A stretch of DNA of 64,000 nucleotides from Candidatus Uhrbacteria bacterium. GTDB taxonomy: Bacteria; Patescibacteriota; Patescibacteriia; JACQRZ01. The position numbers were made by a program, and so were the translations under genes. The stretch spans positions 8,073-72,072 of the forward strand of contig JACQSC010000010.1 of assembly GCA_016206155.1 (NCBI GenBank). The letters run 5' to 3'. This document shows, in pieces, positions 15,057-64,000 of the stretch. The notes below the pieces were generated by a model that did no database searches, had not been told where the DNA came from, and saw only the letters and a program-made list of their open reading frames with translations. Position 1 is the stretch's first letter. Each line of letters starts with the position of its first letter.

Positions 15057-15064
15057 TTTTCTCG

Positions 15065-17262: not shown

Positions 17263-17308
17263 GGTTATTCCAATAATTCATGACTCCTTATTCCTTATTC
17301 GCCGTTGT

Positions 17309-35648: not shown

Positions 35649-35690
35649 CCTAACCCCTAACCCCTAACCCCTAACCCCTAACCCCTATTC
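35649..35690 (+). repeat. (CCCCTAA)x5 telomere-like heptamer array in the 5' leader
   Basis: taacccctaacccctaacccctaacccctaacccctattccc ends 8 nt before the ATG at 35699. Confidence 0.8.
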
Positions 35691-36913: not shown

Positions 36914-36992
36914 TACCTCCTTGACTGATACGTCTGTCATCCCGCCGGTGAAGCATGCCACGGACACCGATCCGGGGAACTGGATCCAGCCT

Positions 36993-39150: not shown

Positions 39151-39263
39151 AAAACGTATCCAGCCCAATTAAGGATTCTTGCGACGGAACAAAAAGCTTT
39201 GTGCCGTAGTAAAAAAATAGCATGGCAGCGCATGGGCGAGCCGGTGGTTTGGGTTTTAACACT

Positions 39264-41829: not shown

Positions 41830-41880
41830 ACGTATGATCGATATGACCACAACGCCGATTGTAAAAATTTTGGTACCGCC

Positions 41881-41896
41881 ATATACTATTAGTATA
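41881..41896. promoter_or_regulatory. Palindromic bidirectional -10 element TATACTAtTAGTATA between the divergent SLT-protein gene and radA
   Basis: The perfect palindrome gives TATACT on both strands at a suitable distance from both start codons. Confidence 0.5.
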
Positions 41897-41918
41897 CCAT
41901 ATTTTAAGCAAAAAATCA

Positions 41919-45505: not shown

Positions 45506-45565
45506 AATTCTTAATTCTTAATTCTTAATTCTTAATTCTTAATTCTTAATTCTATTAGTATAGCA
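45506..45565 (-). promoter_or_regulatory. Promoter (TGcTATACT) and (AGAATTA)x7 heptamer leader ending at the ATG
   Basis: Top ttcttaattcttaattcttaattcttaattcttaattcttaattctattagtatagca. No SD. Confidence 0.7.
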
Positions 45566-49297: not shown

Positions 49298-51421
49298 CTA
49301 CTCGATATGCACGGTATCCTGGAATGTGGCGATTCGGTTTTTAAGTTCCGGGTGATCATTGAGCTTGGAATGATATGCCGCTGCATATTCTCGCGCTTTT
49401 ATAATCAACTCGATATCGGTAAGCGTCGCGATTTTCAAGCGCGGCATTCCTGATTGGCGCAGTCCCAAGATATCACCTTCTCCGCGCAATGCTAAATCTT
49501 TCTCTGCCAGCGCAAAGCCGTCATGTGACGATACAACGGCTTTGAGACGGCTGATTTCTTCTTTGTCCTCGTCGGTTGGTGCAAGAAAGCAGTACGACTG
49601 ATGGTCTGCCCGCCCGACTCGCCCGCGCAATTGATGCAAGCTCGCAAGCCCGAACCGCTCCGCGCCCTCGATGAAGACGATCGTCGCATTTGGCACATCG
49701 ATGCCAACCTCGACAACTGACGTTGTAACTAATATATCAATCTCATGGTCTCGAAATGCGGCCATCACCCGTTCTTTCTCCGCGGTTTTTATTCGGCCAT
49801 GGAGCATTTCGACTCTTTCGTGTCGAAACGGTCCATCGATTAATTTTTTATACTCTTCCTTTACCGACCGCACACCCAATATATCAGATTGATCAATGAT
49901 CGGACAGACAATAAATGCCTGGCGCCCTCGCCTCACGTGTTTTCGGATAAAATCGTATGTCCACGCGCGATAGGACTGCGGCACAATTTTTGTGATAATT
50001 TTTTTTCGCCCCTTTGGCAATGCGCGAATCGTGGAAATATCAAGGTCACCATACACCGTGAGCGCCAAGCTCCTCGGAATTGGCGTTGCCGTCATTGACA
50101 GGACGTGCGCAGTGATTGGCGCACTGTTTTTTTCTCTCAAGGCTTTCCGTTGATTGACGCCAAAGCGATGCTGCTCGTCTACAATCACAAACGCGAGGTT
50201 CTTGAATGAAATTTTTTCTTGAATCAACGCATGTGTCCCGATAACGATATCAACACCTCCATTTGCTATCGTATCTCGTAACTCGTAATCCTTGATTCTT
50301 AATTCTTGATTCTTAATTCTTAATTCGTGATGCTGTGCTGTGAAAAGCGCAATGCGAACATCAAAATCCGCAAACACCTTTTTTAATGTAGTGAAATGCT
50401 GCCGTGCAAGCACCTCCGTCGGCGCCATGAACGCGCACTGGTATCCTGCGTGCACAACGTTAAGCATTGCGAGGATAGCAACGATTGTCTTACCGGATCC
50501 GACATCACCCTGAAGAAGGCGATTCATTGGCGTCGCTTTCTGGATATCACAGAGAATCTCCCATGCAACGGTCTTCTGCTCTTTTGTCAACGTAAACGGA
50601 AGCGCCGCAATGAGCCGCTTCGTTATTTTTTGATCAAACGGTATGGCACATGAAGTCTGGGCGGCTAGCGATTCCTTGAGATTCTTGCAATAAAGTTGAA
50701 GTAAAAAAAGCTCCTCAAACTTAAAGCGCTGTTCGGCGATACAATATTCCTCCTGTTTTTCCGGAAAATGAATTGATAAAAGAGCGGTCGAAAGATCGGG
50801 ATATCGCTCGTGCGCGCGGATATCATCTGGAAGCCACTCTTTGACAAAGGGAAGACATCGATCAAGCGCCGTACGCATGAGGAGGCGAAATTGCTTTTGC
50901 GCAACGTTTGCGGGAAACGAATAGACGGGCACGAGCCGCGCCGTGTGAAGCGATGGAAATACGGTGTCAGGTATCCTGACCCCGTTTTCTGCGCCTGACC
51001 CCGTTTTCTCATATACGGGACTCACCATCTGGAGATCATAATAATGATCGCTCGTTTTTCCCGAAAGACTCAACCAGTCCCCGACTTGCAGGTTTTTTGT
51101 AAGAAAAGGTTGATTGAACCATACGATCTTGATGCTCCCGCTTGCGTCCGAAACCAATGCTTCGGTGACGATCATCCGCGAACGTCGAGAGCGGCGATTG
51201 GCGATCATATCGATCCGCCCCCGAATTGTTGCTGTTATCTGGGTGCGCAGGTCTGCGATTGGAAGCACGAGGGAAAAATCGTCAAATCGTCGCGGAAAAT
51301 AAAAAATGAGATCCTCGCAGGTCTCAATACCAAGTGGCTTTAGTTTTTTTTCCAATGCCTTTCCTGTTCGGCCTAAGCTCGCGAGAGGTTGCGCAAGAGG
51401 ATTCATAAGTTGATTCACCAT
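49298..51421 (-). CDS. recG: ATP-dependent DNA helicase RecG (carries in-frame repeat insertions)
   Basis: Wedge domain, GDVGSGKT Walker A, DEQHRFG and the TRG-like C-terminus. Insertions HELRIKNQELRIKDYELRD and KTGSGAENGVRIPDTV. Confidence 0.9.
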   Translation of the reverse strand: MVNQLMNPLAQPLASLGRTGKALEKKLKPLGIETCEDLIFYFPRRFDDFSLVLPIADLRTQITATIRGRIDMIANRRSRRSRMIVTEALVSDASGSIKIVWFNQPFLTKNLQVGDWLSLSGKTSDHYYDLQMVSPVYEKTGSGAENGVRIPDTVFPSLHTARLVPVYSFPANVAQKQFRLLMRTALDRCLPFVKEWLPDDIRAHERYPDLSTALLSIHFPEKQEEYCIAEQRFKFEELFLLQLYCKNLKESLAAQTSCAIPFDQKITKRLIAALPFTLTKEQKTVAWEILCDIQKATPMNRLLQGDVGSGKTIVAILAMLNVVHAGYQCAFMAPTEVLARQHFTTLKKVFADFDVRIALFTAQHHELRIKNQELRIKDYELRDTIANGGVDIVIGTHALIQEKISFKNLAFVIVDEQHRFGVNQRKALREKNSAPITAHVLSMTATPIPRSLALTVYGDLDISTIRALPKGRKKIITKIVPQSYRAWTYDFIRKHVRRGRQAFIVCPIIDQSDILGVRSVKEEYKKLIDGPFRHERVEMLHGRIKTAEKERVMAAFRDHEIDILVTTSVVEVGIDVPNATIVFIEGAERFGLASLHQLRGRVGRADHQSYCFLAPTDEDKEEISRLKAVVSSHDGFALAEKDLALRGEGDILGLRQSGMPRLKIATLTDIELIIKAREYAAAYHSKLNDHPELKNRIATFQDTVHIE
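50281..50330. repeat. Heptamer array (cgtaatc/cttgatt/cttaatt units) inside recG, in frame, encoding ELRIKNQELRIKDYELRD
   Basis: Top actcgtaatccttgattcttaattcttgattcttaattcttaattcgtga. Confidence 0.75.
50961..51012. repeat. Element C (CCTGACCCCGTTTTCT x2 with a GGTGTCAGG palindrome arm) inside recG, in frame
   Basis: ggtgtcaggtatcctgaccccgttttctgcgcctgaccccgttttctc encodes KTGSGAENGVRIPDTV. Confidence 0.7.
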
Positions 51422-51425
51422 TCAT

Positions 51426-51497
51426 TGCACTCGCGAGGAATCGAACCTCGATTACGGGATCCGCAATCCCGTGTCCTATCCGTTGAACGACGAGTGC
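51426..51497 (-). tRNA. tRNA-Arg with a GCG anticodon
   Basis: GCACTCG-TC-GTTC...GGAC-A-CGGGA-TTGCGGA-TCCCG-TAAT-CGAGG-TTCGATT-CCTCG-CGAGTGC-A. The anticodon stem is perfect, and loop positions 34-36 read GCG. Confidence 0.7.
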
Positions 51498-51603
51498 GCA
51501 AAGAAAGGTGGTGGGACAAGCCTCGATTGCTTGATCCCGTGTCTCGGATTCATTCCGTTGCATGTCCGCCTCTGGCTGAAACGACGGATTCACGAATACG
51601 CAA

Positions 51604-52086
51604 CTAGAGGCGGAGTGTACGCATCAGCCAGTCCCACATCGGTTCATACTGATGGTCGGCATCTTCGTCCAAAAATTCCATCAGGAATAGTTTAATAGAT
51701 TCGGGCTCAATGTCAATTAGGGGCAGGGGAAGAATATTCCGAAGCCCGCGGGCTTCATGCACATAGAGTACGCGCGCGCCGTCCCCACGCTCAATAATCG
51801 AGAATGATGCAAGGTCGTTAAATGAATACTGCTTGTTGCCCACGCGAATGCCTGTTGGGGCTATCTCACAGGTAACATCCGCCGGACTCTGGAATTGCCG
51901 CGCAAAAATAATCAATACCACCAGCACGACGATGACGGTAAAGAGAAAATTGTTCGTCGCGAAACTATACAGCACCGCCAACGCAACAACGACGCCGGCA
52001 ATGACATACCACCACACGCCGCGCGCATGCTGGTCGAATTCTTTGAATGTCCATGTGAACCCTGTTTGCTCTGGCATAAACGTCAT
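51604..52086 (-). CDS. Hypothetical membrane protein
   Basis: Two N-terminal TMs followed by a soluble domain; no motif recognised. Confidence 0.5.
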   Translation of the reverse strand: MTFMPEQTGFTWTFKEFDQHARGVWWYVIAGVVVALAVLYSFATNNFLFTVIVVLVVLIIFARQFQSPADVTCEIAPTGIRVGNKQYSFNDLASFSIIERGDGARVLYVHEARGLRNILPLPLIDIEPESIKLFLMEFLDEDADHQYEPMWDWLMRTLRL

Positions 52087-52174
52087 ACTACGGAGTATAG
52101 CAAATTATGCAATTGGTGTAAATAATTGACGGGTGACCTTTATTCCGATAGACTATTTTCATCATACATTAACT

Positions 52175-52262
52175 GGAGAGGTGCCGGAGCGGCCTAACGG
52201 AATGCACTGCTAATGCATTGACCTCGCAAGGGGTCCGAGGGTTCGAATCCCTCCCTCTCCGA
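52175..52262 (+). tRNA. tRNA-Ser (anticodon GCT)
   Basis: GGAGAGG acceptor, anticodon stem-loop ATGCA-CTGCTAA-TGCAT, long variable arm, T-arm GAGGG-TTCGAAT-CCCTC. Confidence 0.85.
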
Positions 52263-52277
52263 ATTTGAATATTTTCT

Positions 52278-52661
52278 ATGAAAAGCAAAAAACTGCTTCC
52301 CTTGACACTCGTTGGCATTGCTGTCATCGCCGTTATTGGTATGATCGCTGCTGCGTCCAACAAACCGGCGCCCCTTGACGAATTTGCCTCATGTCTCAAA
52401 GACAAGGGGGCGACATTCTACGGGGCCTTTTGGTGTCCGCACTGTCAGACTCAAAAAAAACTTTTTGGCAAATCGGCGAACAAACTACCCTATGTTGAAT
52501 GCTCGCTGTCAAACGGCAAAGGACAGACCAAAAACTGCACTGACAAAAAAATTGAAGGGTACCCAACATGGGAATTTGGCGATGGATCGCGTGAATCCGG
52601 CGAACTCTCGCTTGGGCGCCTTGCAGAGAAAACCAATTGCGCACTTCCAAGCGCTCAGTAA
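52278..52661 (+). CDS. Membrane-anchored thioredoxin-like thiol:disulfide oxidoreductase
   Basis: N-terminal TM and WCPHCQ active site. Confidence 0.7.
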   Translation: MKSKKLLPLTLVGIAVIAVIGMIAAASNKPAPLDEFASCLKDKGATFYGAFWCPHCQTQKKLFGKSANKLPYVECSLSNGKGQTKNCTDKKIEGYPTWEFGDGSRESGELSLGRLAEKTNCALPSAQ

Positions 52662-52664
52662 ATC

Positions 52665-53348
52665 TTACCCGTGCGCAAAGGTCAGCGCGCGTACGTCGCG
52701 CGCTCCTGCATTGCGCAGCGTTCGTGCCGCTTCATTCAACGTTGAACCACTGGTAAAAACATCATCGAAAAGAAGGACGCTGACATCAAGAACGTCCTCA
52801 CTTTTTTTGCAGGCAAACGCCCCCTCAACATTGCGAAGGCGTTCGTCACGCGCAAGCTCCGCCTGCGCATGAGTTGCGCGCGTGCGGATGAGGATATCGT
52901 CACGATACTGCAAGCATGCGCCTCGCGCGAACTCTCTCGCAAACAGCGCCGCTTGATTGAATCCTCGTTCACGCATGCGACTTGCGTGAAGCGGAATTGG
53001 CACAACGACAGAGTTCCACTCACCGCCGTACACATGCCATGCATCGCGAAGAAGCGCCGCCAAAATCGGAATACAAAGAGATACGGAGCCGAACTTGATT
53101 GTATGAACGATGCGGCGAACATGCTCGTCCCAGGCAACCGCCGCAATCACCTGCGAAAGCGCATAGCGCTCTCGACACCACAAACACAAAAATCCTCGAA
53201 CTGAGGATTTTTTACAAAACGGACAGCGGTCGTTTGTGTGTTGCTTCAACGACCCCAAACACTCAGCGCACACCCACGATCCTTCATTTCCGCAACCGAC
53301 GCACGTCGGCGGAAAGAGGAAATCTAGCATCGTTTCAATAATGTTCAT
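52665..53348 (-). CDS. comFC: Competence protein ComFC (double zinc ribbon plus phosphoribosyltransferase domain)
   Basis: CVGCG...CAEC...CPFC zinc ribbons and a C-terminal PRTase motif LLFDDVFTSGSTL. Confidence 0.8.
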   Translation of the reverse strand: MNIIETMLDFLFPPTCVGCGNEGSWVCAECLGSLKQHTNDRCPFCKKSSVRGFLCLWCRERYALSQVIAAVAWDEHVRRIVHTIKFGSVSLCIPILAALLRDAWHVYGGEWNSVVVPIPLHASRMRERGFNQAALFAREFARGACLQYRDDILIRTRATHAQAELARDERLRNVEGAFACKKSEDVLDVSVLLFDDVFTSGSTLNEAARTLRNAGARDVRALTFAHG

Positions 53349-53360
53349 CCCGCACCAAGC

Positions 53361-53975
53361 TCACTGCCAGTAGGCGCTGTCCACCACCCACGCCCCATCA
53401 TCTTTCACAAGCTTTACAACCACGTCTTGATTGTATATGCGCGCGTTGACCGTGCTGCCAATAAGCTCCTTGCGCTGCGTTGCGACAAGAATCTCAGCGC
53501 GTCCCTGCTCGGGCTTATAATCCTTCATGGTGTACGAGAGCGCCTTGGTCGTCACACCGCGATACAACTCCTGAAAGGGTTTGTTTACTTGTTCAGCTAT
53601 TTGCTTTTGCGCCCAGTTTCTCATGGACGAGCCCATAAACGGCAACAAGTCTGAGAGATTTTCAAAATTTCCTTGGTTTGAGTAGCTCCCAAATCGCTCG
53701 ACAAACGGCAGCGCCAGAGAGACGATCTCCTCGCCCGGTTCTGCCGGAGGTGGCGATGAGAGGGGCGCTTGCACAGCACCCTTTCCGACGGATGAAGATG
53801 GCGATGCCTGCCCGGAGCTATTCGATCCTTGATTTCCCTGTTCCTCAACCTGCGTGACAAGTGGTTGCTCTTTTTTTGCGCGGACATATCGCACAACAGC
53901 AATTGCCGAGAATAGAATCATGAGTCCCACCACGGAGAGAATCGCGATCAGAACAATTTTTACGCGTAATGTCAT
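53361..53975 (-). CDS. Membrane-anchored hypothetical protein (NTF2-like C-terminal domain, possibly VirB8-like)
   Basis: N-terminal TM, Ser/Pro-rich linker, C-terminal ...ILVATQRKELIGSTVNARIYNQDVVVKLVKDDGAWVVDSAYW. Confidence 0.45.
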   Translation of the reverse strand: MTLRVKIVLIAILSVVGLMILFSAIAVVRYVRAKKEQPLVTQVEEQGNQGSNSSGQASPSSSVGKGAVQAPLSSPPPAEPGEEIVSLALPFVERFGSYSNQGNFENLSDLLPFMGSSMRNWAQKQIAEQVNKPFQELYRGVTTKALSYTMKDYKPEQGRAEILVATQRKELIGSTVNARIYNQDVVVKLVKDDGAWVVDSAYWQ

Positions 53976-54012
53976 GGATTAGGGCTTAGGGTTTAGGGTT
54001 TAGGGTTTAGGA
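53976..54012 (-). repeat. Telomere-like heptamer array; coding strand (CCTAAAC)x3-CCCTAAGCCCTAATCC directly 5' of the ATG
   Basis: Top gattagggcttagggtttagggtttagggtttagg (a TTTAGGG-type repeat on the template strand). Confidence 0.75.
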
Positions 54013-54021
54013 ATATCCTAG

Positions 54022-55896
54022 CTAGGCTTGGTGTTTCTTTTCAAGCTCGAACTCTTTCTTCGCCGCTTCGATCTCAAGTAATTGGCGCGGATCGGTCGTA
54101 ATCAGCTGATCCTCCGAGTAGGACGCAATCACTTTAATCGCAACGTGTTTGGTTCCCGCGAAAAAAATGCCCTCTCCCGGACCTCCTTCTAATAATAGAT
54201 ACTTCTCACCCTCTGTCAACAAGAATGTCTTCTGTACAACATCGATGGCCGCGGGCGATTGCTTGAGCAGGAGCTGAAGAGCGGAGTTCGTGAGAATCGC
54301 GCGTCCATATTCCGATGTCAAAAAGTCGTTCACGTCCTGCGTGATGGTGGATACCCCGAGATAGTACTTGCGGGCGCGCTTGACCAGCGCGAAGATAAAG
54401 CGCGCGGAGTCCTCGTGCTGCATCAGCCACCATGCCTCATCAATGACCAATATGCGACGCTTCACCTCCGAACGCACGACATTCCAGATGTAATTGACGA
54501 CCGTATAAATCGCAATGGGTCGAAGCTCGTCCTCAAGATCACGCACCGAAAAAACAACCAATTGATTTCGCGTCTCCACGTTTGTCTGATGGTTGAGGAG
54601 CCCTGCAAACGTCCCTTCGGTGTATTTCCGCAGTTTATTCGAAAGCCCTGCTCCTCCTTCCATACCCTCGAGAATATCCTGGAGGTCGGAAAGCGTCGGG
54701 GGCTGGATGCCTGCGGAGAGGTCGGCTTGCGGAGTAATATCTCGCTTGGCATATGCCTCAAGCAAGGCGCGATCCATGATGGAATCCTCCTCTTGCGTAA
54801 ACTCTCCAAGCATCAGGCGCGTGAGCCCTTTGAGCGTAATAACAGCGCTGCGAATAATATCGGCAACCGACGCTTGTTCCCCTACTGCCCGCGGCAGATC
54901 AAAGGGATTGATGCGGCTGGTTGAGGAAAGTGAGATGTTAATATAGGTGCCACCGACGGCATCGGAAAGGTGCTTGTACTCCCGCTCCGGATCAATAACC
55001 AGCACATCAGTCCCCATCATCATGGAGCGTAGAATTTCTAACTTAACGGCGAACGACTTACCGGCGCCGCTCGTTGCGAACACGGTGAGGTTCGCATTCT
55101 GGAGGCTGAACCGATCAAAGAGAATCAAGCTGTTGTTATGCCGATTAATCCCGTAGAGAATCCCATTGTCAGATGTGAGATCAGATGAGATAAATGGAAA
55201 GGCCGCCGCGGCCGGCGAGGTGTTCATGTTAAATGGAATAGCAAGCTCATCGTTGCAAAGCGGCAGGGTTGAATTGTATCCCTGCTCCGCTTGATACAGC
55301 ACGCGTTTGGTAAAAATCAGCTTCGATCCATAGAGTGATTCGATGTCCTCCGTCATCTTGTCGAGTTGCTCAAGCGTATCGGCATAGAGTGTTGTGTAAA
55401 CACCGATGGAAAAAAAGTGCTCAATGCCTTGCGTCAGGTCATCGCGCAATTGCTCCATATCGCGCAGCGCCGTCTCCGCTTGCGGATCGCGGGGCTTGCC
55501 GCGCTCCTGCCCGGAAGAAATCTCCGCCTCAACGCGCCCCACTTTATCGCGCAATTGTTTTAAAACAATGGGCGTCGGCAAAGGTGCAAAAAAGAGCCCG
55601 ACATCAAAAGACGCAGCATAGTTGATAATCGGAGAAAACCATCCGACATTGATATATCGCGGATAGCCGACGACAAAAAGCGTTCTGCAATACTTCGACC
55701 CAACACGGACATAGTTGGGCTGCACCTCAAACGCGGACGGGGCAATCAGATCCTTGACCGCGACCAAACCGCGCCGATACGCTAATTCCTCTTCAAGAAC
55801 GGCTTTTTGCGCCGCTTCTTTCTGCGCAGTTGGTGTGATGGGCTTTTTTTCGTGCTCCTCCTTTTTAGCTTTAATGGGTTTAAATGGCATAAACAT
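54022..55896 (-). CDS. VirB4/TrbE-like type IV secretion ATPase
   Basis: FATSGAGKSF Walker A, ILVIDEAWWL Walker B, VirB4 C-terminal domain architecture. Confidence 0.85.
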   Translation of the reverse strand: MFMPFKPIKAKKEEHEKKPITPTAQKEAAQKAVLEEELAYRRGLVAVKDLIAPSAFEVQPNYVRVGSKYCRTLFVVGYPRYINVGWFSPIINYAASFDVGLFFAPLPTPIVLKQLRDKVGRVEAEISSGQERGKPRDPQAETALRDMEQLRDDLTQGIEHFFSIGVYTTLYADTLEQLDKMTEDIESLYGSKLIFTKRVLYQAEQGYNSTLPLCNDELAIPFNMNTSPAAAAFPFISSDLTSDNGILYGINRHNNSLILFDRFSLQNANLTVFATSGAGKSFAVKLEILRSMMMGTDVLVIDPEREYKHLSDAVGGTYINISLSSTSRINPFDLPRAVGEQASVADIIRSAVITLKGLTRLMLGEFTQEEDSIMDRALLEAYAKRDITPQADLSAGIQPPTLSDLQDILEGMEGGAGLSNKLRKYTEGTFAGLLNHQTNVETRNQLVVFSVRDLEDELRPIAIYTVVNYIWNVVRSEVKRRILVIDEAWWLMQHEDSARFIFALVKRARKYYLGVSTITQDVNDFLTSEYGRAILTNSALQLLLKQSPAAIDVVQKTFLLTEGEKYLLLEGGPGEGIFFAGTKHVAIKVIASYSEDQLITTDPRQLLEIEAAKKEFELEKKHQA

Positions 55897-55903
55897 GATG
55901 TCA

Positions 55904-56061
55904 TTCGTAACTCGTAATCCGTAATCCGTAATTATTTTTGATTTTCGATTGAACTAATAAGCCCGTTAATAAGCTGCATAACCTCTTTTGATTATTCTCC
56001 AAGTTCTTTGCACTGTTCCTTGTACAAGTTACGAGTTACGGATTACGGATTACGAGTTACG
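55904..56061. repeat. Inverted pair of heptamer arrays (CGTAACT/CGTAATC units, ~28 bp each) flanking a 93-bp spacer
   Basis: Left cgtaactcgtaatccgtaatccgtaatt (55904-55935). Right ttacgagttacggattacggattacgagttacg (56029-56061). 27 of 28 positions are complementary. The left array is the VirB4 leader; the right array encodes the C-terminus and stop of the upstream gene. Confidence 0.75.
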
Positions 56062-56768
56062 TTCTCTTCGTTTTCCACCTGCAGCTTGCCAACCTCCGCC
56101 ATCCGCTGATTGGCTGCCGTCAGTGGGTTATAGGTGGTGTAGAGCAGTTCAATAAGGCTCTGCGTGTCAAGACGCGCGGCGTTCAGCGACATGCTCAAGA
56201 GCCCGGATATGACAGCATCAACGCGCTGATCCAGAATATGTTTTCGCTTTAAAAATGCTTCACGGCGCAGGGTGATCTCTCCAACGGCAGTAAACACGTT
56301 TGTCAGTTGACGGAAAAACCCGCGACGCGTATCGGTCGTCGGGTCATACGGTATGACGACATAAAACTTCTTATCCATAATATCGCCCAGTTGCACAAGC
56401 TCGCCGACGAATTGGCGGTAGTCCGCCATCTGCATCTTGAGCAGATCGTTCGTTTGCTGCGCCTCAAGCTCCTGCAAATGCGCAAGGTAGTGCGAGATAT
56501 CGTACTTGCGCGATTGAATGACGATCTGAAGCGGGTAGTCAATGGAGTTGAGAAACTGCTGATACGTCTGGATCGTCGCGTTCTGCTCGTCCTCCGACTT
56601 GAGAAAAAAGTTGACCGAGGATACGAGCAACGCTGCGCGCAACGTCCCGTCCTTCATAACGATCGTGTCATTTTTAATCTCCGCAACCTGAAGGTGCTTC
56701 TGCGTCGAGGCCGTTCCCTTCCCTGCTTTTGGGTTTGGTTCGGAGGTTTGTTTTTTCTTTTTTCCCAC
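56043..56768 (-). CDS. Hypothetical protein, possibly a stand-alone VirB4 N-terminal-domain-like component; the C-terminus ...ENVTRNP is encoded by heptamer repeats
   Basis: GTG start. Weak resemblance to the VirB4/TraC N-domain (LRAALLVSSVNFFLKSEDEQ...LQIVIQSRKYD). Position between the VirB3-like and VirB4 genes. Confidence 0.45.
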   Translation of the reverse strand: MGKKKKQTSEPNPKAGKGTASTQKHLQVAEIKNDTIVMKDGTLRAALLVSSVNFFLKSEDEQNATIQTYQQFLNSIDYPLQIVIQSRKYDISHYLAHLQELEAQQTNDLLKMQMADYRQFVGELVQLGDIMDKKFYVVIPYDPTTDTRRGFFRQLTNVFTAVGEITLRREAFLKRKHILDQRVDAVISGLLSMSLNAARLDTQSLIELLYTTYNPLTAANQRMAEVGKLQVENEENVTRNP

Positions 56769-56770
56769 AG

Positions 56771-56797
56771 ATTACGAGTTACGAGTTACGAGTTACG
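56771..56797. repeat. Heptamer array (TTACGAG)x3 that overlaps the stop of the 56779 gene and forms the leader of the 56043 gene
   Basis: attacgagttacgagttacgagttacg. On the minus strand it reads ...GAC GTA ACT CGT AAC TCG TAA (DVTRNS-stop). Confidence 0.75.
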
Positions 56798-57222
56798 TCC
56801 TGACGATACGCCCCGCCGGTGTCGACAATGAGGGCAAGGTCGCTGAGACGATGGCTGCCGACAAGCGCGCGCGGCCGCTCAGGGGGCAATGGAGCCTCCC
56901 GCTCTTCTTTCGTTTCTTTTGCGTGGCGCACATGGCGCGCCTCTTTTTTCCAAACCCGCAAAGAAGGCCGACTTGCGGTACGTATAATATTGAGGAGAAA
57001 AAAGTGAAACGGCTGGCCGTTGACGCGATAGAACGCGAGCGTTGCCGCGACCCCGCCGATAATAATCGCCATTATGACAAAGAGCGTCAAGTCGGATGTC
57101 TTGTACGCCACGTAAATCATCCCAGCGGCAACCAGGAGTATGACAAACTGCCGCGCCGTTATAGGCCCCAAGATGCGGTCTTCATTCTCAATGAATTGCG
57201 GAACGGTTATTTGATCCATCAC
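56779..57222 (-). CDS. VirB3/PrgI-like small membrane protein
   Basis: ILGPITARQFVILLVAAGMIYVAY followed by a second TM. Ends ...QDVTRNS inside the heptamer repeats. An ATG alternative start lies at 57219. Confidence 0.5.
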   Translation of the reverse strand: MMDQITVPQFIENEDRILGPITARQFVILLVAAGMIYVAYKTSDLTLFVIMAIIIGGVAATLAFYRVNGQPFHFFLLNIIRTASRPSLRVWKKEARHVRHAKETKEEREAPLPPERPRALVGSHRLSDLALIVDTGGAYRQDVTRNS

Positions 57223-57225
57223 TGC

Positions 57226-57264
57226 GAGAATTAAGAATGACGAATTAAGAATTACGAATGATTG
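57226..57264. repeat. Heptamer array (AGAATTA/CGAATTA-type) that forms the leader of the 56779 gene and encodes the IRNS-stop tail of the 57245 gene
   Basis: gagaattaagaatgacgaattaagaattacgaatgattg. On the minus strand it reads ATT CGT AAT TCT TAA. Confidence 0.7.
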
Positions 57265-57640
57265 ATTTTGTGCCCCTGATCAGACCATTGATAATTTTAC
57301 TTACCACTATGGTAAGATCAGCGATTTTCTTAAAGGTGCTTCTCTCGACATAGCCTATATCCCTTGCTATCAACAATTGATTCTGAATTTCCGTAAGCGA
57401 CCCAAGGGCCATTGAGTAAAACTGCGCCTTCTCTTTATAGGAATTTCTGCTGAAGCCTTCAGCAATATTTGACGTTATGGAAACAGCTGCCCTACGCAAT
57501 TGATTTGTTAAACCGAACTGTTCATCTTTTGGAAACGTTGTTGTAATTTTGTATATCTCTAAAACGAGAGCGTGCCCTTCTTGCCAGGCCTTGAGATCTG
57601 TAAATGATTGTATCTTGCTTCTGCTTAATTCTTGATTCAT
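57245..57640 (-). CDS. Four-helix-bundle protein (23S rRNA IVS protein / Avd-like family)
   Basis: LKAWQEGHALVLEIYKITTTFPKDEQFGLTNQLRRAAVSITSNIAEG is characteristic of the TIGR02436-type family. Confidence 0.7.
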   Translation of the reverse strand: MNQELSRSKIQSFTDLKAWQEGHALVLEIYKITTTFPKDEQFGLTNQLRRAAVSITSNIAEGFSRNSYKEKAQFYSMALGSLTEIQNQLLIARDIGYVERSTFKKIADLTIVVSKIINGLIRGTKSIIRNS

Positions 57641-57672
57641 AATTCTTAATTCTTCATTGCAGACAGTATACC
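57641..57672 (-). promoter_or_regulatory. Promoter (gGTATACT) and AGAATTA heptamer leader of the four-helix-bundle gene
   Basis: Minus strand TATACTGTCTGCAATGAAGAATTAAGAATT-ATG. Confidence 0.6.
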
Positions 57673-57695
57673 ATTATTCTGAAGGCATCACAACG

Positions 57696-60431
57696 CTAGT
57701 GCCGTAACTTCTCGTTCACATCAAGGAGCGCGTCGAATTCTTCTGGTGTAAGATACTCTTTCCCTGCGCTTTTCCTCTCTTCAATAAGTTTCGTCATGTC
57801 CTGTCCAAAATTCTGTTGGCCAATCTCAAGATAGAGCTGGTAGGCAGGGCTCTCCTTCCATGCGTTTATCGCCTCGGCTTTTTTGCTCAGGGATTCTTTT
57901 CCCAGCGCGTTAATTTTTTCCAAAATTTTCTGTGTCGCCGCATCAGGATCCTGTGAAATGCGGCGGAGGTCCTTGATGGTCAATGCGCGCAGTTCATCAA
58001 TGGGTCCGACAAGGCGCACCGGCGCTTTCACGTCCGGTATTGGTTTTTTGTCCGCGCCAACGGCAGTTTTTGCCACCGCTCCTCCGCCAGATTCTGAAGC
58101 TTTTGCCGTAACCACAATGGGAATATCCTTTGCATCTTCAAGATGTTCGGGCACCTTCACCGGCTCGGAAATGGTGTCTGGCTCGGAAATGGTGTCTGGT
58201 TTCATTTCTCCGGAAATGATACCTGACACCATTTCCGGAGCTAACTCAGGAGTTTCCTCAGGAGTTTTTTCTGGAACAACAGGCGTCTCTTCTTTCTTTT
58301 TTCCGTTCGCCTTTTTCTCGACTTTCTCAACAATAGTCGGCACCCCTCCCACTTCCTTAATAACCATCTTCGGAGGAGTGGGGTCTGGCTCTGACCCCGT
58401 TCCCACATACTCCCCACTCCTTCCTTCAGCAACAGCTTGTGCCGCTCGTGCCGCCTCCTGCAAGAGCTTCTCAGCATCCTCTGAGGACAAACCAGTGCCG
58501 CCTTCAGCGGTTGGCGCGCACAATCGATCTTTTGTGTCTATCGCATTGCGGATGTTGCGCAGCAGCGTCACGATAATTTTCTTCACCCGCTCTCGATTGT
58601 CGTCAGTAAGGATTGCACCCGCCTTGTTAGTCACCGCATCGGCAACCGCCATAAAATCAATTCCCGTTCCCACTGCCTGATTCTTAATTCGTAATTCTTG
58701 ATTCTGCATTGTCGGCGCCTCAACAATAGTAATCGTCGGTGTCGGTACCGCTGGGGTCTGGCTTAATCCTGCTTTGTCATCCCGAACCTCCTCTTTGTCA
58801 TCCCGGCGAAGGCCGGGATCCATTTGTCCCTGACCCCGTTCTGCGCTTTCAACGACCGTCTCCTCTTCCTGTGAAAGAGCGTCAGACATTATTTTCATAA
58901 CTCTCTCGCGTGTGTTCTCCTCTTCTTCTGAGAGTTGAAACGGTATGACCATCCAATCTATACGTGGCAATTCCAATAAACTGTTTGGAAACCCTTTGAG
59001 AACGAGATAAGTATCCAAGAGTTTGCGCAGCGCCTCGCGATCGCGCTCAACGAGTTTTGGCGCGGCGGCGCTTTGTGTCAGATATTTCGCAAGCGTGAGA
59101 GACGATCCCTCGCCTTTGGAAAATCCCAAAAAGTCCTTGATCCAGTTGCCAACCGTCGGATCTGCCCCGTTCACCTGCTCTGTTCCAATCTTCTGCTCGT
59201 TTTTATACATCGCATTAAGGAGCTCCTGCGCATACCCCTCGATCTCGTTGAGAAGTTGCAAAATCGTCGTGTTCAATGCGGGAAGAATAGAGTCATTCCC
59301 ATACAGATGGAATACAAGCGTGGTTTGGAAAAGATGCGCCATGTCATGCCTCTCTTTTTCAACATCCTTTATGGTATAGCTCTCGTATATCTTTTGGGCA
59401 ACATCAATGAATATCTTCTGCGCCGCTATATTCAATCGGCTTCCTTGAACGTCCTTGTCGGGGTTGCCGCCAAGCGATCGATACAATTCCCGCTGATCGC
59501 CAAAATGATAGGGGAACAGAAGAACGACATTCAGAAAAATCTCACGAGCGCAAAGCTGATCTCTTTCATCCTTAAATGCACAAATGCTGTCGATTTCAGC
59601 CGCAAGATTCTCAACAGGAAGTTCTTTGGTCCACACATTGAGAATGGTCTCATTAATACGGCCAACCTGTTCATCAGAGAGCTGAAACGCTTCCTTTAAC
59701 TGGCTAAGAAAGATGTCGTAGTCGGCTGTGAGATTTACTTCTTGGATATAGTCAGGGATTGAGAAAAGTTTTTTGGCGTCAGGAGAAAACGCAATCTTTG
59801 CGGCAAACTTTTTCACCGCTTCCTGGCCATGATCTCTGAGGTCAAGCGCAATCGCGTGACAAGCATCTTTCATCGCGTCAATCCCTTCGCGTGCGCGGCG
59901 TAACATGACATGGGGTGTGGCTATGTCTGTAACGTGCTCACGAACTGCGGCAAAAATATCTTCATTATGAATGCTTGTTGCGGGAATAGAGAGAAGAATA
60001 TCAGCCGCAAAGTCCGGATTCTTGCACGCATCGGCAATGAGCGCAGTTGTTGCCGCGCGCCGTAATGGATCAGAAAGCGCCCACGTTCCGTCATCGGCGA
60101 GCGCGAGAAAGCGCCCGGTCAAACCATGCGCGCGGCCGAGCATGCGAACCGCACACACAAAGCCATTCGTATAGTTGTTTGGTTCACGCTCTGCGAATCG
60201 AATTCCTGCTTCGAGCTGGGGCAAAAGCGCTTCCATCTGCACCTTTAGTGCATCACGAACATCCGGCTTTATAAACACAAGCCTGTCAAACGCAAGTAGC
60301 GCCTTTGCACTATCGTTTTGCCCGACCAAATATAAGGCGCCAACCAACACCCAACTCACATCCTTGACGGTAATGTTGTCGAGGTTGAATATCCCCTGTT
60401 CTATAAATTGTGCGAGCTGTTCTGAAGTCAT
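57696..60431 (-). CDS. Large hypothetical protein (911 aa) in the T4SS-like cluster; carries elements A and B, an ELRIKNQ heptamer insertion and a Pro/Glu/Lys-rich low-complexity region
   Basis: No catalytic motif recognised. In-frame segments QMDPGLRRDDKEEVRDDKAGL, MVSGIISGEMKPDTISEPDTISEP and MQNQELRIKNQ. Confidence 0.6.
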   Translation of the reverse strand: MTSEQLAQFIEQGIFNLDNITVKDVSWVLVGALYLVGQNDSAKALLAFDRLVFIKPDVRDALKVQMEALLPQLEAGIRFAEREPNNYTNGFVCAVRMLGRAHGLTGRFLALADDGTWALSDPLRRAATTALIADACKNPDFAADILLSIPATSIHNEDIFAAVREHVTDIATPHVMLRRAREGIDAMKDACHAIALDLRDHGQEAVKKFAAKIAFSPDAKKLFSIPDYIQEVNLTADYDIFLSQLKEAFQLSDEQVGRINETILNVWTKELPVENLAAEIDSICAFKDERDQLCAREIFLNVVLLFPYHFGDQRELYRSLGGNPDKDVQGSRLNIAAQKIFIDVAQKIYESYTIKDVEKERHDMAHLFQTTLVFHLYGNDSILPALNTTILQLLNEIEGYAQELLNAMYKNEQKIGTEQVNGADPTVGNWIKDFLGFSKGEGSSLTLAKYLTQSAAAPKLVERDREALRKLLDTYLVLKGFPNSLLELPRIDWMVIPFQLSEEEENTRERVMKIMSDALSQEEETVVESAERGQGQMDPGLRRDDKEEVRDDKAGLSQTPAVPTPTITIVEAPTMQNQELRIKNQAVGTGIDFMAVADAVTNKAGAILTDDNRERVKKIIVTLLRNIRNAIDTKDRLCAPTAEGGTGLSSEDAEKLLQEAARAAQAVAEGRSGEYVGTGSEPDPTPPKMVIKEVGGVPTIVEKVEKKANGKKKEETPVVPEKTPEETPELAPEMVSGIISGEMKPDTISEPDTISEPVKVPEHLEDAKDIPIVVTAKASESGGGAVAKTAVGADKKPIPDVKAPVRLVGPIDELRALTIKDLRRISQDPDAATQKILEKINALGKESLSKKAEAINAWKESPAYQLYLEIGQQNFGQDMTKLIEERKSAGKEYLTPEEFDALLDVNEKLRH
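58163..58238. repeat. Element B inside the 911-aa gene (ggctcggaaatggtgtctgg x2 ... cctgacaccatttccgg), in frame
   Basis: Encodes MVSGIISGEMKPDTISEPDTISEP. Followed by the tandem ctcaggagttt x2. Confidence 0.7.
58771..58835. repeat. Element A derivative inside the 911-aa gene (ctttgtcatcccg x2 ... gccgggatcc, plus ctgaccccgtt), in frame
   Basis: tttgtcatcccgaacctcctctttgtcatcccggcgaaggccgggatccatttgtccctgaccccgtt. Confidence 0.7.
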
Positions 60432-60461
60432 ACTAGTAAAGCACCATCTCTCTTAAGGATT

Positions 60462-62672
60462 TCACGTGCGGTTTTGATCGCGAATCGCATCAATAAGTCT
60501 CTGAAAATCTGCAGCGGTTGGCGGCGGTCCCGCCGCCCCTGGCGGTGGTGGTGGGCCCCAGCGCGCGATCTCAACCTGATGCGCATTGATCATTGATGCA
60601 AATCGTCCAAATTGAGCAACGAGCTCGTCAGGAGCATACCCGTTAACTAGATCTTGCGACATGGCAACCTTTGCCGCCGCACGTTCAATATCTGAGTAGC
60701 CTGGTGCTGTACCGTTTGCAACTGAATTTCGTAGCTCGGGGGTAAGTCGTTGCATCTCTCTAATCAATCTTCCCATGGTGCTGTCAAGGGCATCTGCGGC
60801 AGCAAGTGTTTGTGACTCACCGCTCCTTTGAATATCGGTCACAACACCGGGACCGTAAATGACTCCAATTCCTGCGCTTGCAAGGGCGCCATGCCCAGCT
60901 GCTGCCACACCGGATGCTCCGGCCATTCCCGGCATACCCGCCATGCCTTCCATACCCCACATGCCAACTTGACTAGCAAGCCATGCCTTCCCCATTTCCA
61001 TTGTAATCTTTGGCATTGCCGTTAGGACACTATCACGTACATTTCTTGCCTCAAGATTCTCCGCTTCGTTAATATTTCTATATGCAGCAGCGCGCTCTTG
61101 CGTCGCTAGCATGCGCAAACCCGGAGCAGCAACTGGGTCATTCCGTGCCAGCGCATCTAAACGCTCTGCTTCACGCATACTAATTGCTGCCTCGGTGCGC
61201 AAGTTTGGTGCCCGCTCTGCGGCATCTTGCTTTCTAGCGGCTAAACGATCCTGATGTCCCTTGCCCCATCCAAGTACACCCCCTGACACATTGCCAAAAA
61301 ACCGATCTGCCGCCGAGGATGCTCTGCCAAGTTGCTCGTGTATTGCGCGTACGGGAGCAATTCGATCGAAAGCCTCCCTCCCCAATCGTCGCGCTGTTTG
61401 TCCGGGCAACTTTTTGGCAATACCCGCAACTTGTGCCAGACGCGCAGCGCGACGCTGTGTTCTTTGCTCCCGCTCCTGTCGTCGAATTTTCGCATATGCG
61501 CCCAACGTCTCTCGCGCTCGGCGAAACGGACTGAACGGTCCGCGTTTACCCGCCATCCAGTCCTTGGCAAACGATGCGGCACCACCGGCAATACTCCCGC
61601 CAACCGATGACAGCTGCTGCGCCGCCATGAGCGATCCAAGCAACATGACTATGCCAAGGATGTAGCTTGCAGTGCCTCCCAGAGTGCCAATAATGGAACT
61701 GCCGAGGCTTCCGAATTGTTTATCTCCAGACCACTCCGGTTTATTGGCTAAATCAAGCCCCAATTCACTTGCAATATAAATAGTTGACCCATCGGTAGTA
61801 CCCTCCATCTGTGTTGCGACAACTGTAAGCGAGAGCCAAAGAAAGAACGCCATCACCGGTCCAAGCAACAAATAGCTGACAAATTGCTCCTGCCATTTTG
61901 AAAAATATCCGCGGTCATTGGGAAGCGACATCAAAAAGAACGCCGCCGGGGAAAGGATAATGAGAAACCACAATGCGACGATACGAATAACAAGCATCAC
62001 AACCATTATCACAACGACAATAAAGGCAACAACAACATAAAAAAATGCTAAGAGCATGCCGGTCGCGGCCATCGTTCCACTAACAGGGTCATTGCTCCCT
62101 CCGACATGTTTGAGGAGCCCATGAAGACCAATGAGCACGGCAAAGTTGCCTCCGCCGGCAGACGAGATCGCACCCATGAACGTCATCATCACCACCTGTG
62201 CCGCGTCAATGGCAATGCCGCAGATTGTTTTTGAAAAATTGACGAGGATAGCGGCGGCAAGAAACTTCGGTAATGTTTGAGAATAGTGGTACTGCTGCTG
62301 CTGAAGAATGGTGCCAATAGCAATGGCAAGCAGAACCAAGACAAAGAACATGTTGACAAAATCGCGGACAACAACCCAGCCGGTGGTAACGGCTGTTGAT
62401 GCCAAAAACTGATTGTAGTTGCCAACCGCAAGGAGCACCCAGATAAAATTCAAGAGCATCCACCCAATCGTCTGAACAAGCCAACCAACCAATCCGCCAA
62501 CAATTTTTGTAAGCGATGCGGTGGTAAAATCTCCAATGTTGTCAAGGATCCCTGCCGCCTGTATGCTATTCCCAAAAACAAAAACCCCTGTGCCGATAAA
62601 AAATAAAACAAGGGCTGCGGCTGTTATGGTGCCTAACCTTTTCTTTTTGATGCTACTAAAAAACTGCCTCAT
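60462..62672 (-). CDS. TrbL/VirB6-like polytopic membrane protein with a long hydrophilic C-terminal tail
   Basis: More than 8 TM helices in the N-terminal 330 aa (TrbL/VirB6-like topology), then a Gly/Ala-rich linker and a charged C-terminal region. Confidence 0.65.
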   Translation of the reverse strand: MRQFFSSIKKKRLGTITAAALVLFFIGTGVFVFGNSIQAAGILDNIGDFTTASLTKIVGGLVGWLVQTIGWMLLNFIWVLLAVGNYNQFLASTAVTTGWVVVRDFVNMFFVLVLLAIAIGTILQQQQYHYSQTLPKFLAAAILVNFSKTICGIAIDAAQVVMMTFMGAISSAGGGNFAVLIGLHGLLKHVGGSNDPVSGTMAATGMLLAFFYVVVAFIVVVIMVVMLVIRIVALWFLIILSPAAFFLMSLPNDRGYFSKWQEQFVSYLLLGPVMAFFLWLSLTVVATQMEGTTDGSTIYIASELGLDLANKPEWSGDKQFGSLGSSIIGTLGGTASYILGIVMLLGSLMAAQQLSSVGGSIAGGAASFAKDWMAGKRGPFSPFRRARETLGAYAKIRRQEREQRTQRRAARLAQVAGIAKKLPGQTARRLGREAFDRIAPVRAIHEQLGRASSAADRFFGNVSGGVLGWGKGHQDRLAARKQDAAERAPNLRTEAAISMREAERLDALARNDPVAAPGLRMLATQERAAAYRNINEAENLEARNVRDSVLTAMPKITMEMGKAWLASQVGMWGMEGMAGMPGMAGASGVAAAGHGALASAGIGVIYGPGVVTDIQRSGESQTLAAADALDSTMGRLIREMQRLTPELRNSVANGTAPGYSDIERAAAKVAMSQDLVNGYAPDELVAQFGRFASMINAHQVEIARWGPPPPPGAAGPPPTAADFQRLIDAIRDQNRT

Positions 62673-62741
62673 GAAACGCGACCATGAGTGATAGCTCTAG
62701 TATACCATGCGCAAGAAAGAAAAACAGTGGACGACTAAGAA

Positions 62742-62795
62742 TTGTCATCCCGGTCCCTCGGGGGTACTCGGGATAAACTCCGGCCGGGATCCAGG
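62742..62795. repeat. Palindromic element A, second full copy (inverted orientation relative to 15006-15056)
   Basis: ttgtcatcccggtccctcgggggtactcgggataaactccggccgggatccagg. Its reverse complement is about 90% identical to the copy at 15006-15056. Confidence 0.75.
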
Positions 62796-62801
62796 CCAAA
62801 A

Positions 62802-64000
62802 TTAAACTCCTTTGCTCCGTAATGCGGCGTCCGAAACTATGTGTTTATCGATAAAACGCTTTCTCAATTCTGTCTGCTTCGCAGAATCAGAAGCGAGATT
62901 TTTTAATCGCTCAACAGCTATGCGCTCCATAAAATCAACAAAGCGGGGGTGCACAAGGTCGGCATCTTTAATAATACGATACTGCCAATACGCGTCTTTT
63001 CCTCGTTCTTTCAATAATTCGGCGCGAAATGTGATAAAATCATCATCATGTCCTTGCTCAAAAAGACTTATGAGCCGCTGCAGCTGTTTCTTCTTCGTGT
63101 CCTCATTTGAAATCGTATCGTCCAACTCATCCTTGCTTAGACGTCGATAGGGAGCAAAGAGCGCCTCCCGCTCCGAAGGTCCATATTTATCGGCAAGAGA
63201 TTTGATGTTTTTCTTTAATTCCTCAATCGTTTTATCAAGTTCTGCGAGTTTGTCCTCCGCCTTTTTTATGAGCCTGTCGCTCTTCATGTCCTTCAGTTCT
63301 TTCTCCATCACTTCCTGCTGTTTGCCCGCCGCATCAAGTTCTTTTTGCAATGTAGATATGGTAGCGGGTATGGTGACAAGAATTTCCATTTTTTTCTCAG
63401 CATCCGGATGTCCCGGCGTATCTGGCAGCGCGGAAAATGGCTCAAGAACACGATTTTTTACAAAGGCGTCAAATTGAGCGATTCCGTCTTGCCACTCGGG
63501 AAGCGTGCTCCCCCCTTCGAGCATGGCTCTCATTGCACCAATGGTCTGCTCCTTTACTCGCGAATTGTTAACAGCCTCGGCATAGTTTGAAAACGGTACT
63601 TTAGTATCAGAAAAAACACGGGCGAGCCGCTCTAATGAACTGTCATCGTCAACGGTCTGACTCGCCGCGCGTTCAAGCGTACGTTCTGCAAGATGCATTG
63701 GAACGTTTCGCGCTTCGATAACACCCAGTTCCAACGCCTCGAGAGTCCTCGGCTCAACACCATCATCAAACTGCCTATTAAGAAGTTCTAGTACTTCGCG
63801 CTGTACGCCAGAATGTGCAAGCCTATCAGGTTGCACCGGCATATCTTTCTTTGTAAGGCCATTCAGGAGATTGGTGTGTTCAAACATCTCGACAAATTTC
63901 CTCTGATTTCTATCCGCATCCAGATCGCTCGGGTCGAGCATGTCACGCACCCGCCCCAACAATTGTCCGCGTAAAAATGTCAGTGTCGCCTCGCGCCGCG
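62802..64000 (-). CDS. Hypothetical coiled-coil protein (5' end beyond the window)
   Basis: The reading frame stays open past 64000 (...RREATLTFLRGQLLGRVRDM...). Coiled-coil stretch LQKELDAAGKQQEVMEKELKDMKSDRLIKKAEDKLAELDKTIEELKKNIKSL. Confidence 0.5.
   Translation of the reverse strand, partial: RREATLTFLRGQLLGRVRDMLDPSDLDADRNQRKFVEMFEHTNLLNGLTKKDMPVQPDRLAHSGVQREVLELLNRQFDDGVEPRTLEALELGVIEARNVPMHLAERTLERAASQTVDDDSSLERLARVFSDTKVPFSNYAEAVNNSRVKEQTIGAMRAMLEGGSTLPEWQDGIAQFDAFVKNRVLEPFSALPDTPGHPDAEKKMEILVTIPATISTLQKELDAAGKQQEVMEKELKDMKSDRLIKKAEDKLAELDKTIEELKKNIKSLADKYGPSEREALFAPYRRLSKDELDDTISNEDTKKKQLQRLISLFEQGHDDDFITFRAELLKERGKDAYWQYRIIKDADLVHPRFVDFMERIAVERLKNLASDSAKQTELRKRFIDKHIVSDAALRSKGV

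Follow-up and report, generated by a model that had tools for sequence, protein, structure and literature searches.

A conjugation-derived type IV secretion operon of ABY1 Patescibacteria with a putative role in DNA import and a hitchhiking IVS-type cassette

What kind of machine is encoded by a compact string of genes ending in comFC in a Candidatus Uhrbacteria bacterium, what would it carry across the cell envelope, and does the four-helix-bundle (4HB) protein encoded in its midst belong to it? These questions are raised by a 64,000-nt stretch of contig JACQSC010000010.1 (hereafter the window, which always means the whole stretch), in which nine long open reading frames (ORFs), all co-directional according to the ORF list, occupy positions 52665-63962 of the minus strand. 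In the analysis described here, the locus is identified with high confidence as a chromosomal, vertically inherited type IV secretion system (T4SS) operon of the class ABY1 Patescibacteria, derived from the monoderm MPF-FATA conjugation machinery. The best explanation of the whole, to which we assign a probability of roughly 0.6, is that of a T4SS operon with a putative role in DNA import and a hitchhiking cassette of the intervening sequence (IVS) type. DNA import as the function of the locus is proposed tentatively, and the 4HB gene is an IVS-type selfish insertion, not a part of the T4SS.

In the order of transcription, the string encodes a coiled-coil protein, a VirB6-like protein, a 911-aa protein (p911), the 4HB protein, PrgI, a TrsD-like protein, VirB4, a VirB8-like protein and ComFC, separated mostly by spacers of 10-55 nt, with exceptions of 129 nt 5' of the VirB6-like gene and 146 nt 5' of VirB4 (Table 1). 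All of these ORFs are intact and lie where an earlier reading of the letters and ORF translations alone (hereafter the sequence-only reading) had placed them. Genes were assigned by profile scans against Pfam and NCBIfam with curated cut-offs, and the VirB4 and VirB3/PrgI proteins proposed by that reading both exceed these thresholds. VirB4 carries a Walker B motif (ILVIDE, from a motif scan) and a Walker A motif (ATSGAGKS, read from the translation); its homologues in the candidate phyla radiation (CPR) number in the thousands and have a body of 613-676 aa, a single one of 520 aa being a partial record. One protein identical to it over its whole length is annotated as Candidatus Uhrbacteria. 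Overlapping hydrophobic windows at residues 17-67 of PrgI are read as a two-helix hairpin. The TrsD-like protein matches TrsD (4.8e-6) and the N-terminal part of VirB4_plasma (4.7e-11) with scores below the NCBIfam full-length cut-offs; both models are matched by all 75 of its orthologues, 60 of which also match the CD1110 VirB4, and orthologues in relatives carry the TraC-like PF26593, in line with the N-terminal VirB4 half that had been suggested. Sequence-profile searches of the PDB returned nothing significant for the TrsD family.

The anchored NTF2-like protein named by the sequence-only reading has no family match by sequence, and the sole T4SS domain in its PDB profile search was PrgL, at a non-significant E = 6. 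Its AlphaFold2 (AF2) model (mean predicted local distance difference test score, pLDDT, 85.4) gave as top fold matches CagV (3e-6), PrgL (1e-5), an IcmL-like protein, R388 TrwG/VirB8, Agrobacterium tumefaciens VirB8, TraM and DotI; in its predicted structure, this 204-aa protein has a VirB8 fold. The polytopic protein that had been called TrbL/VirB6-like stands less firmly. Its transmembrane (TM) segments all lie within residues 1-345 and are followed by a long Ala/Arg/Gly-rich tail, and it approaches TrbL (3e-3, 17.7 bits against a cut-off of 25.9) and the Mycoplasma integrative conjugative element (ICE) family MMCAP2_0566 (4e-8, 32.8 bits against 90). TrbL is matched by 10 of its 48 orthologues (best 1.5e-5); otherwise one member only has a match, to DUF7167 at 0.004. 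A weak TrbL_3 match was seen in the orthologue of one related locus, and a sequence-profile search of the PDB gave no match for the family, so that a VirB6 identity is suggested weakly but consistently. Taken together, the profile and fold results confirm VirB3, the VirB4 N-terminal domain and VirB8, and leave VirB6 plausible but weak. At the end of the string, both the zinc ribbon and the phosphoribosyltransferase (PRTase) domain of the predicted ComFC pass their Pfam cut-offs, and ComF/GntX models match at E ~1e-27, yet under their curated cut-offs. The comFC gene is convergent with a gene 3 nt away whose product had been described as thioredoxin-like, which comes close to the Pfam model and falls just under its cut-off (22.2 against 23.5 bits).

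The spread of this gene set was followed through VirB4, relatives of which occur in at least 597 species-representative genomes. Synteny was compared in 82 related loci—that is, those of the best 80 species-representative genomes, which span several ABY1 orders and comprise Uhr-, Magasanik-, Falkow- and Buchananbacteria along with other Patescibacteria, plus two loci from ENA. VirB4 is 66-85% identical to the window protein across these ~80 ABY1 species, and the order VirB6-like, p911, PrgI, TrsD, VirB4, VirB8-like is kept with median spacers of 15-25 nt; PrgI/VirB3 is present in 79 loci and the VirB8-like gene in 75. A co-directional comFC follows the VirB8-like gene directly in 42 of the 63 evaluable loci, with a median spacer of 2 nt (46 loci) and 12 nt in the window, and recG lies at most 10 kb away in 29. 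Two distant relatives, L084 and L085, have the same wider layout as the window, with ClpB, a pilin/SLT protein, RadA, RecG, a 160-aa protein and ComFC. The VirB2-like pilins, the SLT-like protein, RadA and RecG of the window itself lie 2-25 kb downstream of the operon.

A monophyletic clade of Patescibacteria VirB4 proteins, related to MPF-FATA, has recently been described, together with TrsD as the most abundant associated component, homologues of PrgI and VirB6, arrays of VirB2-like pilins, ~50 VirB8 matches phylum-wide, nearly all in ABY1, a near absence of relaxases, and the common inclusion of comF, recG and radA in ABY1 loci (Quinonero-Coronel et al., 2025, Microb Genom, PMC12102498). 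The window is alike in TrsD, VirB4, PrgI/VirB3, the VirB6-like protein, VirB8, pilin arrays, the lack of a relaxase, the chromosomal location and comF/recG/radA, and is a faithful instance of this published class; the locus is therefore less novel than the sequence-only reading assumed. Relative to the published description, a VirB8-fold protein is near-universal in the sampled ABY1 loci, and the p911 family is defined here as a conserved member. In the window, the VirB6-like protein is short (736 aa against ~950) and p911 long (911 aa against ~470); two insertions of the IVS type and a coiled-coil gene specific to the lineage are further differences. With MPF-FATA systems (pGO1 TrsC/D/E, pCF10 PrgH-I-J-K-L, the Clostridioides difficile CTn CD1110, Mycoplasma ICE), it shares the CD1110 VirB4, PrgI, TrsD as a separate protein, a VirB8 fold resembling that of PrgL, an Mbov_0395-type pilin-like protein and, tentatively, a VirB6-like protein. 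Unlike these conjugative systems, the window operon lacks a relaxase, a type IV coupling protein (T4CP) and a PrgK/TrsG-type hydrolase, VirB2-like pilins are present, and the operon, passed on vertically in a housekeeping context, is thus not a mobile element.

The 4HB gene breaks this conserved order. Its product is a clear member of the 23S rRNA IVS protein family (PF05635, 2e-38; TIGR02436, 3e-36), and the ORF is bracketed by inverted arms of tandem heptamers at 57227-57254 and 57626-57653. The window cassette has an arm score of 19, whereas 299 controls average 8.0 (sd 1.5, max 17), and the arms are paired in both the minimum free energy (MFE) and the centroid fold. A further 17 4HB genes were found in the related loci; among the resulting 18, arms are present in 16, with scores of 12-32, and the arm sequence varies between cassettes, even inside one genome. 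The same architecture recurs outside the T4SS loci: of 66 unrelated 4HB genes from metagenome contigs, 44 are bracketed by arms scoring at least 12, and such arms flank 2 of the 186 ORFs that served as controls. Of the 44 bracketed genes, 37 have arms with a period of 7; the median element is 454 nt long, and none of the 20 best bracketed elements lies in rRNA. Near the window locus, Rfam models found two tRNAs only, and no rRNA in 51000-64000. Weighing against a selected RNA element, the z-score of the whole-cassette fold is only -1.6 and the mismatches within the arms are not biased towards G:U on the sense strand (31 sense against 28 antisense); because of the latter, selection on an RNA stem, as opposed to a DNA inverted repeat, is not demonstrated.

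The closest known counterpart is the 23S rRNA IVS of Coxiella burnetii, which has an S23p ORF, a 28-bp terminal stem and tandem heptamers at the start codon, measures 428 nt and is cleaved by RNase III (PMC4990558); an IVS with an S23p ORF in Leptospira 23S rRNA is also mentioned there (Ralph and McClelland, 1993, as cited in PMC4990558). The window cassette has in common with that of Coxiella the PF05635 ORF, the ~28-bp stem and the heptamers next to the start codon, and is 427 nt long. Unlike the 23S IVS, which sits in helix 25 or 45, it lies in an intergenic spacer of a protein-coding operon, and our literature search found no published description of a heptamer-bracketed S23p cassette outside rRNA.

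A second insertion of this type has decayed. Within the TrsD/VirB4 spacer, the 104 nt enclosed by the heptamer repeats encode the last 4HB helix, aligning to positions 94-125 of the 4HB profile (15 bits), and hold an in-frame stop; the stem is 26 bp long, with z = -7.4. At the same junction, L087, a 94%-identical relative, has 8 nt, and the median across 78 loci is 15 nt. The perfect 26-nt repeat, the residual helix with its stop and the 8-nt junction of L087 together mark 55906-56061 as a decayed cassette. In the operon transcript, the arms of cassette and relic are predicted to fold into 26-28-bp stems, which, by analogy with the rRNA IVS, would be substrates of RNase III. The array of heptamers before the VirB8-like gene (53979-54011) is likewise absent in L087, where the spacer is 17 nt.

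What the operon would transport is a separate matter. It encodes a cytoplasmic-membrane core of a putative VirB6-like channel protein, PrgI/VirB3, TrsD, VirB4 and a VirB8-fold protein, plus p911. VirB4 would dock via TrsD and PrgI on a VirB6/VirB8 membrane platform and supply the energy for building a VirB2-type conduit or filament that spans the monoderm envelope and through which a macromolecule would be moved; the cargo may be DNA taken in from a host or an adjacent cell, passed in single-stranded form to ComFC and the recombination helicases. In agreement with the sequence-only reading, no relaxase, T4CP (VirD4/TcpA) or VirB9/10/11 was found in the ~47 window ORFs that were profile-scanned, nor were a relaxase, a coupling protein or VirB9/10/11 found in three Pfam-annotated related loci (L001, L084 and L085), and the operon holds no PrgK/TrsG-type hydrolase. 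Because no relaxase or T4CP is nearby and the operon ends in ComFC (as in two thirds of the ABY1 loci) beside RadA and RecG, incoming DNA would be the most likely cargo in this lineage. In Helicobacter pylori, the ComB system acts with ComEC and ComF. Like the window operon, ComB and the archaeal Ced/Ted systems (the latter cited in PMC12102498) are reduced T4SSs that lack a relaxase and T4CP and are linked to competence or recombination; ComB differs in being a diderm MPF-T system with VirB7/9/10, and archaeal Ced uses CedA/A1/A2. The profile scans also gave a weak partial match to CedB (7e-11). The minimal CPR-type apparatus for DNA uptake proposed by the sequence-only reading thus holds as far as the reduced T4SS is concerned, and its DNA-uptake part is a suggestion from gene neighbourhood. 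No CPR T4SS is known to import DNA.

Several points weigh against this reading of the operon and have to be set beside the rival explanations. The case for import comes from neighbourhood only—tight ComFC coupling and recurrent RadA and RecG—and transport direction and cargo are putative; the comFC link is missing in 21 of the 63 evaluable loci; ComEC, ComEA and DprA are absent from the scanned window ORFs; the VirB6 assignment is under every curated cut-off; and the scan for a relaxase and T4CP ends at 64000, beyond which the contig runs on. T4SS genes of Saccharimonadia are essential for epibiotic growth and comEC is not, as reported from the only CPR bacterium tested by genetics; this suggests that the system serves something else than classical competence, and in Southlakia, where the same essentiality of the T4SS and dispensability of comEC are reported, VirB2 pilin arrays vary as they do in pathogens (PMC12102498). 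The findings on Southlakia speak for a rival reading, a T4SS for host interaction that does not handle DNA, serving VirB2-type pili, the delivery of proteins or toxins, or the uptake of small molecules from the host, with ComFC, RecG and RadA as mere neighbours. That comFC is lacking in a third of the loci would fit such a system, as would the pilin array and type IV pilus genes of the window and the giant surface proteins with carbohydrate-binding modules (CBM) encoded directly upstream of the VirB6-like gene in relatives. We nevertheless regard it as rather unlikely, given that the short comFC spacers suggest co-transcription, that three DNA-processing genes (ComFC, RecG and RadA) recur in the neighbourhood, and that the operon has no recognisable effector/immunity pair. 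The scarcity of relaxases across the phylum (PMC12102498) speaks against another explanation, a decaying or defective ICE from which the relaxase and coupling protein have disappeared. The best models are indeed those of conjugation families (CD1110 VirB4, TrsD, PrgI, Mycoplasma ICE MMCAP2_0565/0566, Mbov_0397), and the region contains repeats and selfish cassettes. Decay is extremely improbable, however, for a locus with every ORF intact, with VirB4 as conserved and gene order as fixed as they are among ~80 species in several ABY1 orders, and with housekeeping flanks (ParAB, MurA/B, MraY and aminoacyl-tRNA synthetases, with ClpB also near the locus), and a window whose GC content stays flat at 0.45-0.54, without a shift in composition, and in which neither an integrase nor a relaxase nor att-like borders were seen.

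The place of the 4HB protein was judged along similar lines. The sequence-only reading had counted an Avd-like four-helix-bundle protein as part of the T4SS context, and that claim was not borne out: the protein belongs to the S23p/IVS family. A role as a working accessory, whether in the T4SS or, like Avd, in a diversity-generating retroelement (DGR), would be in keeping with the fold superfamily and distant sequence relation that it has in common with Avd, with the co-orientation of all 17 related 4HB genes and the window copy with their operons, and with a mild enrichment inside the operon (13 against 4, p = 0.03, a marginal value). Yet 4HB cassettes occur in only 9 of 81 related operons, at five differing junctions, and the closest relatives do without the gene, among them L001, the closest full-length relative, which has no cassette at the p911/PrgI junction; the bracketed architecture recurs, moreover, in the unrelated contigs, which span GC contents of 0.28-0.71. 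The DGR version of the idea was rejected, as DivGenRetAVD reaches only 21.6 of the required 80 bits and bAvd 25.6 of 40, and the scanned window ORFs contain no reverse transcriptase (RT) domain and the window no template/variable repeat (TR/VR) pair. An accessory role is accordingly highly improbable. The reading as a selfish IVS-type insertion is preferred because the gene is absent from most orthologous operons, its junction varies, and it forms a self-contained inverted-repeat cassette.

How far this reading of the cassette extends beyond the T4SS operon is less certain. The S23p 'rRNA IVS' element may be a general, widespread selfish cassette of intergenic spacers in co-directional bacterial operons, including the conserved and presumably important T4SS operon of the CPR, whose remnants would be bare stems and solitary heptamer arrays, some of them in-frame within recG and the p911 gene; we give this proposal somewhat less than even odds. 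If it is true, the heptamer microsatellites of the window genome would either be traces left by the S23p element family or serve as its substrates, and the S23p protein would be the element's own factor. The cyanobacterial short tandemly repeated repetitive (STRR) heptamers, which we take to resemble the arrays of the window, might then be such traces or substrates as well.

Intergenic heptamer arrays were noted at 1100-1144, 17230-17300, 19795-19823, 29904-29922, 35649-35687, 45501-45553, 53979-54011 and 56772-56797. They fall into several sequence families, such as (TTCTTAA) x 7.6, (CCTAACC) x 5.6 and (TTAGGGT) x 4.7, and several are built from units that also occur in the arms of cassette and relic. 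Within recG, a 63-nt in-frame array of nine heptamers (50269-50331), encoding ..ELRIKNQELRIKDYELR.., mixes unit types of both cassette arm families and falls in a loop of variable length among 24 orthologues. Promoter and terminator scans of the locus gave results at chance level throughout; the promoter-like extended -10 at 57693-57665 on the minus strand (TTGTGA, 17 nt, TGgTATACT), which is located immediately beyond the cassette's 5' arm, belongs to that scan.

With the locus type itself already described, the new points for the T4SS are incremental, namely the near-universal ABY1 protein with a predicted VirB8 fold, the very large p911 family and the figures for ComFC coupling. They give a sharper form to the testable idea that DNA is imported by a conjugation-derived machine in ABY1 bacteria, which are unable to make nucleotides. 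The cassette architecture is the only lead here that may be new: an S23p 'rRNA IVS' element with inverted heptamers outside rRNA, which hitchhikes in an operon and decays to stem-only relics, and which gives a handle on the function of S23p proteins and the origin of tandem heptamer arrays.

Table 1. Coordinates of the operon, its insertions and neighbouring features in the window
Feature	Position	Strand	Remarks
Coiled-coil protein, 386 aa	62802-63962	-	Heads the string within the window; no TM segment; only weak coiled-coil matches
'Element A' copy, palindromic repeat resembling repetitive extragenic palindromic (REP) sequences	62740-62790	strandless	Inside the 129-nt spacer 5' of the VirB6-like gene
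VirB6/TrbL-like polytopic protein, 736 aa	60462-62672	-	7-8 TM segments; profile scans
p911, 911-aa soluble protein	57696-60431	-	No family match in profile scans
IVS-type cassette, 427 nt	57227-57653	-	131-aa 4HB/S23p ORF (57245-57640) between inverted arms
PrgI/VirB3-like small membrane protein, 147 aa	56779-57222	-	Pfam PrgI PF12666, 1.3e-11, 45.3 bits vs cut-off 27
TrsD-like protein, 241 aa	56043-56768	-	Free-standing homologue of the VirB4 N-terminal domain
Decayed 4HB cassette	55906-56061	-	In the 146-nt TrsD/VirB4 spacer; perfect 26-nt heptamer inverted repeats around 104 nt
VirB4 ATPase body, 624 aa, MPF-FATA	54022-55896	-	NCBIfam CD1110-family VirB4, 351.6 bits vs cut-off 325
Solo heptamer array, (TTAGGGT) x 4.7	53979-54011	strandless	Directly upstream of the VirB8-like start codon
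VirB8-like bitopic protein, 204 aa	53361-53975	-	N-terminal TM helix, disordered linker, NTF2-like domain
ComFC-type protein, 227 aa	52665-53348	-	Last gene of the string; DZR_2 double zinc ribbon and Pribosyltran (PRTase), both over Pfam cut-offs
RecG helicase	49298-51421	-	Outside the string; conserved neighbourhood
RadA/Sms	41919-43343	+	TIGR00416, 537 bits vs cut-off 403; outside the string; conserved neighbourhood, same neighbour in L084 and L085
Four paralogous genes, two with a T4SS_pilin (VirB2-like) domain	35699-39698	+	PF18895 at 4e-5 and 6.5e-9
Type IV pilus genes	PilB 25423-27156; PilM 28780-29916; PilT-family 18702-19832		Profile scans

Apart from its size, p911 stands out by its conservation: it is present in 75 of the 82 related loci, invariably directly upstream of PrgI. 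In the AF2 model, its C-terminal 330 aa form a pair of small helical domains connected by a disordered linker, and an exhaustive search with this region returned 2254 representative clusters, in every one of which the domain is at the C-terminus. The AF2 model had no significant fold match in the PDB (best Nab2 N-domain, E = 0.46), and the sequence-profile search of the PDB gave nothing significant for the family. The disordered linkers of the window protein hold three differing in-frame repeats: an 18-nt duplication with a 25-nt hairpin (58162-58237), the hairpin of which recurs at 43093-43140; a heptamer array encoding ..QNQELRIKNQ.. (58680-58705); and a REP-like palindrome, GTCATCCCGGC...GCCGGGAT (58793-58822), which recurs at 42334-42363. 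L086 has the p911 closest to that of the window (65% identity); there, p911 is followed by a gene (3479-3553) that is neither PrgI nor 4HB and begins MEQKKQTTFAFIDSQNLNLGVRSQG, which suggests that the p911/PrgI junction also accepts other small inserts. This beginning looks like one of the NYN/LabA type.

At the other end of the string, the coiled-coil protein has a homologue in none of the 82 related loci and is, as judged from these, specific to the lineage of the window. In its place, L084 (1-5091) and L085 (1-3338) encode giant proteins of 2635-3406 aa with CBM_4_9 matches, directly upstream of the VirB6-like gene and unrelated to the 386-aa protein. The neighbouring 'element A' copy is, as had been noted, 92% complementary over 51 nt to 15008-15058.

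Both the VirB2-like pilins and the type IV pilus genes that had been pointed out elsewhere in the window were recovered by profile. The pilins are encoded at 36921-38216 and 39222-39698, within an array that also gave an Mbov_0395 pilin-like match (2e-5) and contains a 198-nt repeat in three copies. For the adjoining SLT-like protein of 749 aa (40003-42252, minus strand), the longest ORF overlaps radA on the opposite strand by 334 nt, and the true start is probably further downstream; its L085 orthologue has T4SS_pilin and faint SLT matches, so that it may be VirB1-like or a pilin fusion. Between a PGA_cap/Memo gene and recG, a 622-aa protein (47370-49238) carries a full serpin domain (2.8e-112), to our knowledge unusual for a bacterium with a reduced genome. 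A 160-aa membrane protein at 51604-52086 has counterparts in 23 of the related loci, where they also lie downstream of comFC; in 12 of these the gene stands between comFC and recG.

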